Of a DNA stretch of 64,000 bases, positions 10,516 through 47,832 are shown piece after piece (within the stretch, counting starts at the first letter, position 1; the number at the start of each line of letters is the position of its first letter). Source of the stretch: Octopus vulgaris. Its lineage: Eukaryota. The translations under genes and the position numbers were made by a program. A model generated the notes under the pieces. That model worked only from the letters and a program-made list of their open reading frames with translations, was not told where the DNA came from and made no database searches. The stretch lies in the NCBI GenBank assembly GCA_951406725.2, contig OX597816.1, positions 31,992,001 through 32,056,000 of the forward strand, in the 5' to 3' direction.

Positions 10516-11317
10516 AACGTGCGTCCGTAGATAACTTAAAATTGTATGATAGATTGCCGTCAATTCATTCTCTCTTACCTGTTTGTGTCTGCCTTCCAAT
10601 TGCTGTATTTTTACTGAGATCTCCCTTTTTAGTAGAAGAAATAGCTATAACTCTTTGACTGCTATTTCTAAATTCGGTCTGTGGCAAGGCAATTCGTTGC
10701 TAAACCCTTTATTGCTTAGTATTACTTAAATTTTCCTCGAATGAGGCTTTTACATACCGAAGACTACTTGGTGTAATTGATAATTATTCCAAATTAATTA
10801 ATTTCACCCTTCATTATTACGGATAACCATATTTTATCTCAGTAGATGACCACAGCATCTTGTTTTGGCTACACGCGGGTGGGAAGGGGCTGGTGACACA
10901 ATCTTTTCATTCACACTTTGAATTTGGTGATACTAGTTGCGGATTCTAGCTCGCTCTGATACTGAGTTGAGTTGGTGCCTTCTAGTATCTCAAAATTCAA
11001 TATATAATCATTTATGATTATAGTATTCTACGCTGAAGAGAAAAGAAGTTTGGGTAAGGTAGAATTATTTAATATTTAATTCTTATGCTTTCCTAAAAAC
11101 TTGATTTCGAAACGTGCGTCCGTAGATAACTTAAAATTGTATGATAGATTGCCGTCAATTCATTCTCTCTTACCTGTTTGTGTCTGCCTTCCAATTGCTG
11201 TATTTTTACTGAGATCTCCCTTTTTAGTAGAAGAAATAGCTATAACTCTTTGACTGCTATTTCTAAATTCGGTCTGTGGCAAGGCAATTCGTTGCTAAAC
11301 CCTTTATTGCTTAGTAT
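10516..11317 (+). mobile_element. Non-coding hammerhead-bearing element, 595-bp unit, about 1.35 tandem copies (retrozyme or Penelope pseudo-LTR-like)
   Basis: Direct repeats of about 207 bp at 10516-10722 and 11111-11317 appear identical. TA-rich flanks. Hammerhead at 11027-11126. Confidence 0.8.
11027..11126 (+). ncRNA. Type I hammerhead ribozyme motif
   Basis: tctacg-CTGAAGA-g(69-nt hairpin stem II)c-GAAA-cgtgcg-TC-cgtaga. Stem I tctacg/cgtaga is complementary. GUC cleavage predicted after 11120. Confidence 0.8.
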
Positions 11318-13021
11318 ATATATAATATATATATATATATAGAGAGAGAGAGAGAGAGAGAGAGAGAGAAAGACATATATGGATATATGTATGTAGATAT
11401 GCTTATGTAATATATAGATGAAAATGTATATATGTAAATGTGTACATATTTGTATGTAAATCTCGAAGTTTTTAATGAGTGTAGTATCGATTTAAGGTCC
11501 AGTTTCTCGGAGATGGTGTTACCAAACCAAATACTTAAGGAGTATATATCTAATATTATGTTTATTGTAGTTCGAATGACCGATACGTTGGTATTAAGCC
11601 TCATGACTGGGAATCAATGTTTTGTGCGTAGCAGACATTAACGAAAATATCCTCAGTATGTATTATAACTGGGGAAGCATATTCTAAAGATTGACTCATT
11701 GGTAGATTTTGAGATGAGTGAGGCATGTGTTATAAGTTTTATTTCTATTTGCCATGTATTCAATTCGTCATTAAAATAAATATGATCCTTATGTTTCTGT
11801 TAATTCTAAGATACTAGGTCATGATGATCTTTGAGTGTATCATGGGGATGAAATTAAAACAGAATATTAATTAAATGTTTTGTTTTTTTCACAAAATTAT
11901 TTTCGTTTTAGGTTCTTTCTTGTATTATTCAGTTCATTATTCATTATTCAGTTCCATTAATTTCTTTTACTATTGGTAAGAAAACGAAGAGACTTAAGTA
12001 AATGACACGAGGAAGAATTTACCGCTGTTATATAAATAATAAACTCAAACTTATTTATTTTGCAAATATTTATTCATATCAAAATTTATCACGAACACAA
12101 ACTCGAGAACTAAAAGCTATGGAAATATAATAAAAAAAACATTAAGATATTAAAGTTTTAATTTATGATCTAAGACTTTCAAAGAATGGAATTTTTCTTC
12201 AGACCATAACCGTCTGTGGCGTTTCTCTAAAGCGTGTTGCTACCGTACTATTTCATCTTTTTTCCTGGTTTCTTCTCCCTGGATACACGATGCAGCTTGG
12301 TTATGATGAAAATATTCTTAGTTATGTAAATAAATAATTTTTCCTAGTTTCTAGCGTCAGTTTACAAATAAATACTTTTACTATATATGATTTATTATTA
12401 TCTGTTTCACATAGAATTCTTCAAAGCATTTATGTTGCGCAGTAAATGATACCAGCTCAAATATTCCGAGAACTAACCGCAGCAATGATTTTACACTGAC
12501 TGCCGCCACAGAATTTCAGAGAAACTAGGCTTTCCCAATTTCGAGGTGTAGTACACACTAAGTCCAGAATATCAGAATGAAATAACTGGGGACAAATGGA
12601 GCGATGGAAAACTATCCCAGGTAGGTGGGGAGATACAATTGTCTCACAGTCGTATCCTAGTTCATGTAAATTAAGCTAGAGATTGAGAGACCATATCCAC
12701 TGCCTGGATTATGTGTAATAGGTTCTATAAATGGAAGTGATTAGAGACAACTTGCTTCAAATGGATAGCCTACATATTGTACAGCAACATACATTTTGAA
12801 TAAAGAAACTGTGTAATGTTCTTACTTATTGTCAGCTCTGACTATATAGATTGATATCCAGGTGATAATTTGGATTATAATGTCCATTTGTGCTTTTCCA
12901 TTTAATGTGGTATAACTGAATTAAGATAGATTTGGATGCCCTTTCAAACATACCAAATGGCTACTTACAACTTTTTTTAAAAACCTGAATTGAAATAATT
13001 ACTTTTATATCTTCGCATAAA

Positions 13022-13102
13022 CACCCTCTCTGTACATAACTCCATGTCCCCCTACATGGCCATGATTTTTGCTTTTTGAGCCAAAAAATTAACTTAACTT
13101 AA
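13022..13102 (+). mobile_element. CR1-type LINE 3' UTR tail
   Basis: tctctgtacataactccatgtccccctacatggcc...gagccaa matches the 3' UTR at about 46775-46835. Ends in short (aactt) repeats. Confidence 0.65.
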
Positions 13103-46554: not shown

Positions 46555-46856
46555 CTATTGGTGTTCTTCACTTCTGCTCCAGAGCGTGGGCTGCGGGGTC
46601 ACTCTGAAAAGCTCTATCTACGACGATTTCATCTCAATCGAAGGAGAGGGGCTTTCTCAGTCCAGGTTGCGGATCCGTGGAATAAGCTGCCGGACGAGAT
46701 AGTGAAGATGCAGACGACTGCTCGGTTCAAAGTCTCTCTTGACCGGAAATGTCCTGAAATTTCTGTATGACCATCTTCTCTATACATAACTCCCTGTCCC
46801 CCTACTTGGCCTTGCTTTTGCTTTTGGAGCCAATAAAAACTGACTGATTGATTGGT
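46555..46856 (+). mobile_element. CR1-type LINE 3' end
   Basis: LRGHSEKLYLRRFHLNRRRGAFSVQVADPWNKLPDEIV...RFKVSLD is a typical CR1 ORF2 C-terminus, followed by a 3' UTR and short tandem tail. Confidence 0.88.
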
Positions 46857-47621
46857 TTAATTTACTTGACATTTGCTATTTAGACTGTCATGTGTTTCTG
46901 GATTGCTTCATTTGGGTTGGATAATTGCATTAAAAGTGTTTTGTGCTGGATGTAGTCTGTTCTTAACAGGGCTATTTTGGGATTAGTATATAGCGTTTAT
47001 ATTCCAGTTCTAGCTTCTACGGTTTGGGGCATGTCTATTTTGGGGATTTTTTATCATGAAGAATGCTCAAAGTATTATTGGTATTGTCTTCAGTTCTATT
47101 TCCCACATCTTTAATACTTCTCTTTCGAGGTCTGCCCCAACATCGTTCACAAGTATTGCATCAAATAGCGATATCAGACAAATGTGCCGGGCGACTCGTT
47201 TCGATGTTATGTTCGATTATTAGCACACAACGTTACATATTTATTTCTAATATACAAGCACAGAGGCAATCAATTAAGGGTGGATCGCTTTCGATTATGT
47301 ACTTCAGTACTAACCTGGTTCTTGAATCTATCGACCTCAAAACGATTCAAAGCAATGTTCACATTTGCGAAGTTAAAGCCAAATTGTAAAGAAAAGGTAC
47401 AGAAACCGCCAACGATTTTATCCGATTCATTAAATTTTTTGATGATAGGGATCTAAGGGAGTGGCAATTCAAACAAACATAAACTACATACTATACCTAA
47501 ATTTTCAAAGCCCACACAAATATGCATACATATGGATACATACATGCGCACATACACAAATACACGCATATATATTGACATATATATATATATATATATA
47601 TATATATATATATATATATAT

Positions 47622-47832
47622 CCGTGGAAATCTGTTTATGTTACTTAATTATCTACATTACTTCATGAGTGTAGCCTCAACCACTAGGATGTCTAGAGAA
47701 CTCACATGTATTTTAGCTGATGAGTACGGGACACGTTTATATGCTGCAATTTTTGCAACTTTTAATAAAGCCTGTCCTTGTATGAAACGATTGTACTAAA
47801 AACCTCTCCATTCTTGTTGCTTCTTTCTCGCG
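47622..47832 (+). mobile_element. About 210-bp hammerhead-bearing island inside (TA)n
   Basis: TA tracts on both sides; contains the hammerhead at 47711-47801. Confidence 0.72.
47711..47801 (+). ncRNA. Type I hammerhead ribozyme motif
   Basis: ttttag-CTGATGA-gtac(60-nt hairpin: ggaca/tgtcc, tttat/ataaa, tgcaa/ttgca)gtat-GAAA-cgattg-TA-ctaaaa. Six-bp stem I and a GUA site. Confidence 0.83.

Follow-up and report, generated by a model that had tools for sequence, protein, structure and literature searches.

Hammerhead retrozymes and truncated Penelope-like element ends in TA tracts of the Octopus vulgaris genome, with a probable circular template

Retrozymes without long terminal repeats (non-LTR retrozymes) have been reported from coral, mussel and axolotl, and their rolling-circle copying by Penelope-like elements (PLEs) was put forward (Cervera and de la Pena 2020, PMC7229834). 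Li, Clavereau and Pollet 2026 (10.64898/2026.07.22.740005) linked retrozymes with the ends of PLEs in 31 vertebrates plus four invertebrates, none of them a cephalopod, and left the mechanism open. Among coding PLEs, the Hydra clade (Craig et al. 2021, PMC8557442) is defined by the RWK, DKT, CxCx5C, CxxC and CxH motifs, and Hydra-1_Obim from Octopus bimaculoides is listed in the supplement of that paper. For the Poseidon PLE of the anole, Frangieh et al. 2024 (PMC11167929) showed that each of the two DNA strands is nicked and extended; the protein is a predicted dimer. Here we describe a window of 64,000 nt of the Octopus vulgaris genome (assembly GCA_951406725.2, contig OX597816.1, positions 31,992,001 to 32,056,000), in which five islands flanked by TA tracts carry hammerhead ribozyme motifs. 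Judged from their sequences, islands 1, 2 and 4 are non-LTR retrozymes of three new families (A, C and B, respectively), built of head-to-tail hammerhead units without an open reading frame (ORF). We consider it probable that these families were copied into TA runs by a PLE reverse transcriptase (RT)-endonuclease acting on a likely circular monomer, and that islands 3 and 5 are truncated ends of Hydra-clade PLEs with the same insertion ends.

The window was scanned with a strict descriptor of the type I hammerhead, and 200 local dinucleotide shuffles served as the null. Five strict motifs were found, with cores at 11033(+), 31665(+), 47717(+), 31374(-) and 26569(-), against a shuffle mean of 0.02 (196 of the 200 shuffles contained none and four contained one). 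The stem I condition was then removed because circularity was to be avoided, and the identical five motifs were returned, each with 4/4 Watson–Crick stem I pairs. Two further layouts are degenerate: that at 32225(+) has a single stem III substitution, and that at 26942(-) combines a CCGAUGA core with a mismatched stem II. The first-pass annotation of this DNA had counted seven layouts in islands bounded by TA-rich tracts; the count stands as five strict and two degenerate layouts, and the tracts lie where it had placed them. Its statement that stem I differs in sequence between islands and is nevertheless complementary agrees with the five motifs; also, across all the loci compared, 17 of the 43 distinct stem I pairs are fully complementary (4/4), compared with a mean of 1.07 and a maximum of 5 in 2000 partner shuffles. 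Rfam reports no hammerhead among 122 window matches at E<=5, and none at the gathering score in five loci. At least ten further hammerhead types, with differing complementary stem I pairs, are found in flanks or in diverged PLE loci (L004-L234, L275-L304).

The features of the three retrozyme families in the window are as follows; positions of 3' ends are counted from the predicted cut throughout.

10516..11317, plus strand: family A insertion (island 1), 1.34 copies of a 596-nt unit.
11027..11126, plus strand: family A type I hammerhead, CUGAAGA core at 11033, predicted cut after 11120.
26350..26765, minus strand: family C insertion (island 2), 416 nt of a 470-472-nt unit.
31037..32464, plus strand: family B insertion (island 4), two-armed, 560-nt unit.

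Island 1 begins 9 nt ahead of one predicted cut, includes the following one (after 11120) and stops, adjoining (TA)n, at +198, a preferred 3' site; 10516-10722 and 11111-11317 form an identical 207-nt direct repeat. The family A hammerhead comprises a 6-bp stem I, a 69-nt stem-loop II and a self-complementary stem III followed by UC, and in subfamily A', which is 75-86% identical to A, the base of stem II shows a compensatory change from A-U to G-C. Arrays of family A contain one to about five units (structures of 30 loci); 133 matches in tandem arrays came from 40 scored of 1,970 candidates. Island 4 has two arms, a minus one that runs from 31470 to 31037 with its end at +294 and a plus one from 31470 to 32464 with its end at +196; its hammerhead cores lie at 31374(-), 31665(+) and, with a mutated stem III, 32225(+). 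Arrays of family B reach 11 full units with no coding spacer. For family C, only three hammerhead-to-hammerhead spacings across 30 loci attest to tandem arrangement; island 2 has its core at 26569-26563 and its predicted cut after 26484, and its 3' end is the first preferred site of the family. A 13-nt piece of the 5' end of island 2 is repeated across a short TA run toward island 3 (26750-26795), possibly by a template slip at the 5' junction.

In the 2.8-Gb genome a 25-mer across the family B cleavage site has 1,566 exact matches (control 0), in agreement with the high copy number predicted earlier. The first 100 listed of these matches form 47 clusters; all 17 with a single match and the first 20 of the 30 with several were taken as the family B sample (37 loci). 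In each protein or family search about 140 of 6,000-25,000 candidate places were scored. The longest ORFs starting with ATG measure 23 amino acids (aa) in family A and 30 aa in family C. A 107-aa ORF in island 4 was considered as a gene and rejected as a chance ORF, being open in one of 101 family B units (the window's own) and matching no Pfam family; it is the only longer ORF in the islands, in line with the first proposal that they have no credible ORF. The description of the islands as all different in sequence needs correction, since islands 1 and 4 are 67% alike along a 203-nt alignment and the family of island 2 has a block in common with both.

Islands 3 and 5 do not consist of tandem units lacking an ORF. 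Both are truncated terminal repeats (pseudo-LTRs, pLTRs) of coding elements, putative members of the Hydra clade, and not retrozymes:

26805..27017, minus strand: family D pLTR, truncated and inverted (island 3), degenerate core CCGAUGA at 26942-26936, stem II mismatched.
47625..47836, plus strand: family E pLTR, 5'-truncated (island 5), core at 47717, predicted cut after 47795, 3' end at site +41.

Copies of island 5 are often paired 4-6 kb apart. In L091, 373-nt direct repeats spaced 4,650 nt flank a 957-aa RT/GIY-YIG ORF; either terminal repeat of this 4,650-nt element shows 99% identity to island 5. The one homologue of the family E protein that has an organism label is from Octopus sinensis. 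The minus arm of island 3 ends at site +112 and the inverted arm at site +42, and the island and the pLTRs of L206 and L231 show 92-97% identity. Family D has a 711-aa ORF in a unit of about 3,357 nt, with the ORF adjoining the pLTR in L149/L206 and L231-L234; intact members have the core CUGAUGA, compared with CCGAUGA in the subfamily of island 3. A third Hydra family (L305, L307-L316, L330) appears very young, with at least 143 scored copies at 99-100% protein identity, and its core is CCGAAGA (U4C) in 12 of the 12 loci where the motif was found (13 scanned). U4C weakens hammerhead function without abolishing it (PMC3088659), and this family would provide a natural test of whether the variant core cleaves. 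The proteins of D, E and the third family all contain the RWK, DKT, CxCx5C, CxxC and CxH motifs, on which the putative Hydra-clade assignment of islands 3 and 5 is based; Pfam and PDB did not recognise the Hydra proteins, and hhalign of a Hydra-protein profile with a Pfam-confirmed RT/GIY-YIG Neptune-type protein gave 96.9%. The young Hydra families include many long open copies. A two-ORF Neptune-type PLE (L265:406-5172, L241-L264) is also active-looking, with a 781-aa open frame, many copies and ends at TA; near its 3' end it has only a non-canonical hammerhead-like motif, and its 3' untranslated region (UTR) contains repeated boxes, which we take to be CCAAT/CRE-like.

The seven motifs are therefore a mix of autonomous and non-autonomous families. 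The proposal that all islands are non-autonomous, TA-targeting retroelements moved by a Penelope-like RT holds for islands 1, 2 and 4, which are ORF-less, high-copy and tandem with PLE-type ends, and fails for islands 3 and 5, the coding-PLE ends. What holds for these two could be extended to all five islands, with the parents of A, B and C missed among the candidate places that were not scored. This is improbable. The earlier annotation had named such an outcome for every island as one that would overturn it; islands 3 and 5 show this outcome, and for islands 1, 2 and 4 no such parent was found among the PLE loci sampled. The sequence upstream of every family B hammerhead examined (37 loci) is the previous unit and not a 3' UTR or ORF, and the long arrays have full units without a coding spacer. 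In none of the 37 loci does a PLE ORF continue from a family B unit; PLE protein matches occur in the fetched flanks of three, every one outside the element. The neighbouring PLE matches at L004, L050 and L216 also lie outside elements, and the PLE beside the B array in L210, considered as a parent of B, belongs to the third Hydra family and was inserted separately. A tblastn search of PLE proteins on the A, B and C units gave no match, and no coding parent of A, B or C was found among the sampled Hydra-type, Neptune and A' loci.

All five families share a common insertion anatomy: they are flanked by TA, and downstream of the ribozyme each has two preferred 3' ends. TA adjoins nearly all ends in the 37 B loci (the exceptions are L328 right and L353 left, with an N gap in L325). 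In family B, 61 of 64 3' ends are at the preferred sites, +193-203 (29) or +294-298 (32); inverted loci with a 3' end at both extremes make up 27 of the 37, and in 25 of these 27 there is one of each site. The two-armed loci of family D have one end each at +42 and +112 (22/22), and those of family E one each at +41 and +162 (10/10). The commonest 3' ends finish in TA-like bases. These ends correspond to the tail and inverted copy of PLEs (PMC8557442) and match the two-site, two-strand pattern of the anole PLE, from which we infer twin priming by a PLE enzyme. The same anatomy bears on a model discussed by Li et al. (10.64898/2026.07.22.740005), in which such families are satellite-like, born once from a solo PLE end and spread by local unequal crossing over, without an RNA step of their own. 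Block duplications inside the long arrays agree with it; the copies on many chromosomes, each with its own TA tract, variable 5' ends, fixed 3' ends and inversions, do not, and divergence within an arm equals that between arms. We regard this model as largely refuted and very improbable for A, B and C.

The cycle that we propose would begin with transcription of a retrozyme array. Two hammerheads, paired through the self-complementary stem III of each, would release a monomer, and its ligation would close a circle. A PLE protein would nick both strands of (TA)n; from each nick, complementary DNA (cDNA) would be primed at one of two preferred positions inside the RNA, which are spaced about 100 nt, with TA-like pairing over a few bases as an aid. 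The two cDNAs would extend backwards over the junction at the ribozyme by 0.2 to several units, and their tail-to-tail joining would yield an inverted two-armed insertion. Young helper candidates exist, namely the three Hydra families with RWK, DKT and CxCx5C and with many apparently open copies. A more specific version, which we hold tentatively and at somewhat less than an even chance, is that the PLE enzyme primes both strands of the TA nick at two fixed sites of one circular RNA, rolling in both arms, and that A, B and C parasitise this step via a short cis signal; to the same tentative degree, the signal would have no detectable kinship to the ends of the helper.

Copies of family B vary least in the core with 5' stem I (0.009) and in the two end regions (0.011 and 0.008), compared with 0.056 for the remainder; since the rows include subfamilies, they are not independent. 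Families A, B and C also share a hairpin block, a candidate protein-recognition signal:

31805..31850, plus strand: hairpin block common to A, B and C, which stops 52-57 nt short of the first preferred 3' end.

Its fold z-score is -2.35 in B and -0.35 in A, and its variability over B copies is low. L272 (minus strand, about 2400-2600 and 450-620) holds a small two-armed, TA-flanked element with this block, which is possibly a further passenger family. The stem III self-duplexes have predicted energies of -9.4 (A), -9.8 (B) and -16.5 (C) kcal/mol, and the predicted circle folds are 62-66% paired, with z-scores of -6.3 to -6.7 (30 crude doublet shuffles, only indicative). No data set listed as containing these sequences is recorded as RNA, an outcome counted neither for nor against circles.

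Concerning the template, 58 of 69 arms extend over one cleavage site or more, and of the 69 5' ends only 2 coincide with such a site (1.5 expected). A cut linear monomer is excluded on these two counts, which leaves a circle or an uncut multimer. Units diverge by 0.53% within loci (24 loci) and by 5.16% between loci (614 pairs). Divergence within and between arms is similar (0.46 vs 0.63%, p=0.47) and correlated across 29 loci, which dates most units to the insertion itself. Array-private alleles are found in both arms in 25 of 26 testable cases. Together with the uniformity within loci, this indicates a single unit variant per insertion, mostly multi-unit from the start. Such insertions are what a monomer circle predicts, and they fit it; a short linear donor is also allowed.

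Several observations weigh against the circular reading. Some of the long B arrays contain 18 subset-shared compared with 43 single-unit variants, with periods of 2-4 units, which implies that part of the array length comes from later block duplication or an assembly artefact; oligomer circles were considered as the source of the periodic variants and rejected, as the periods stop part-way or mix. The minimum-energy folds contain a complete monomeric hammerhead in none of the six hammerhead stretches folded; dimer-dependent, weak hammerheads, as described in PMC4209133, would be in line with these predicted folds and with stem III self-pairing. Eight of nine Xenopus retrozyme dimers showed no cleavage in vitro (10.64898/2026.07.22.740005), and cleavage is dispensable for insertion of the anole PLE (PMC11167929). 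The rule of one end at each site is looser in families A (6/11 loci) and C (4/8), and the end samples of A, C, D and E are biased, each query ending at one site. Lastly, A, B and C resemble none of the PLE terminal repeats in the 20 Hydra-type, four D and 30 + 10 GIY-YIG/Neptune loci sampled, a partial sampling. As partner enzyme, the active-looking, TA-ending Neptune family is a candidate equal to the Hydra families.

The strongest competitor keeps the enzymes and the two sites unchanged and takes the template to be an uncut linear multimer of the donor array; the hammerhead would then be slow or idle, and uniformity would come from short donors and later duplication. Arms across the cleavage site fit this equally well, the periodic shared variants would be later block duplications, and the poor monomer folds and the young Hydra family with a fixed U4C core also agree with it, as does the anole PLE, for which uncut RNA is the main substrate in vitro (PMC11167929). 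Copying of a multimer would however transmit differences from unit to unit, whereas loci are ten times more uniform inside than between, with private alleles fixed across both arms; moreover, loop II has drifted, in contrast to the conserved core and stem I. We consider a linear multimer unlikely, though less so than the other alternatives, and a circular monomer remains the reading that we prefer.

The kind of element is already known. A, B and C resemble other animal non-LTR retrozymes in being ORF-less, AT-rich (34-35% GC) and head-to-tail with one type I hammerhead per unit, and in their thousands of copies, co-occurring PLEs and predicted highly paired circle. Their units (471-596 nt) are longer than the 170-400 nt circles of invertebrates and fall inside the 51-972 bp range of Li et al. 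Unlike those of known retrozymes, their hammerheads have a short stem I, with long stem II insertions in A and C, and are overlooked by Rfam. Their copies are scattered, target TA and in most cases have two arms with two fixed ends, a pattern that we did not find described for retrozymes in the available text of these sources. No kinship to PLE ends was found for A, B and C in the PLE loci sampled, whereas 24 of 57 Xenopus families match Repbase transposable elements, nearly all of them PLE ends (10.64898/2026.07.22.740005).

Islands 3 and 5 agree with the Hydra clade (PMC8557442) in the protein motifs, C-terminal GIY-YIG, pLTR hammerhead, (TA)n target, inverted 5' copy and tail at one end. 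Family E is longer, with a 4,650-nt unit and an Asn-rich linker compared with the usual <3 kb; the U4C core of one D subfamily and of the third family also departs from the available description of the clade, and the tails here are 70-120 nt compared with 30-40 bp described for PLE insertions. As in the anole Poseidon PLE (PMC11167929), two neighbouring internal RT starts downstream of the hammerhead define the tail. The anole start site lacks target homology, whereas the commonest ends here are TA-like, and the rule of one site per arm is read here from genomic copies, non-coding passengers included, and not from an assay. Our literature searches found, among the papers listed, no cephalopod retrozyme and no two-site rule for retrozymes; "octopus" and "cephalopod" are absent from the main text of PMC7229834, and the available text of the octopus repeat paper PMC13282606 mentions no ribozyme. 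On present sequence evidence the three retrozyme families appear new, and the interest of the set lies in its mapped start sites, the signature of a single template and the young helper candidates.

Other features are also found in the window. A remnant of a non-LTR retrotransposon ORF with RVT_1 and zf-RVT, presumably R4/Dong-like, lies within an AAT microsatellite at 34727-37060 (+), and open frames at 9064-9849 (no Pfam match) resemble what we take to be a Helitron helicase remnant. A likely tRNA-derived short interspersed element (SINE) is present in three copies that are 78-84% alike (27033-27431, 30652-31040 and 57784-58058), two of which directly adjoin the TA tracts holding islands 3 and 4. 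A two-copy tandem duplication at 42771-43459 (period 341-348 nt, 89% identical) showed no hammerhead in the scans. There is also a 94-nt palindrome, 98% perfect and centred on a TA run (28658-28751), and a 312-nt inverted repeat (70%) just after island 4 (32597-32908).

The octopus genome carries thousands of predicted hammerheads that Rfam overlooks. The movement of animal retrozymes and the use of circular templates by PLEs are still open in the published text available. If correct, a dual-primed circle step would account for the tail of PLEs and the inverted 5' copy, and for partial tandems and the arrays of retrozymes as well. Young retrozymes with conserved, mapped starts and young, apparently intact PLE enzymes are found in one genome, which would make the template, the cis signal and the helper testable in vitro.

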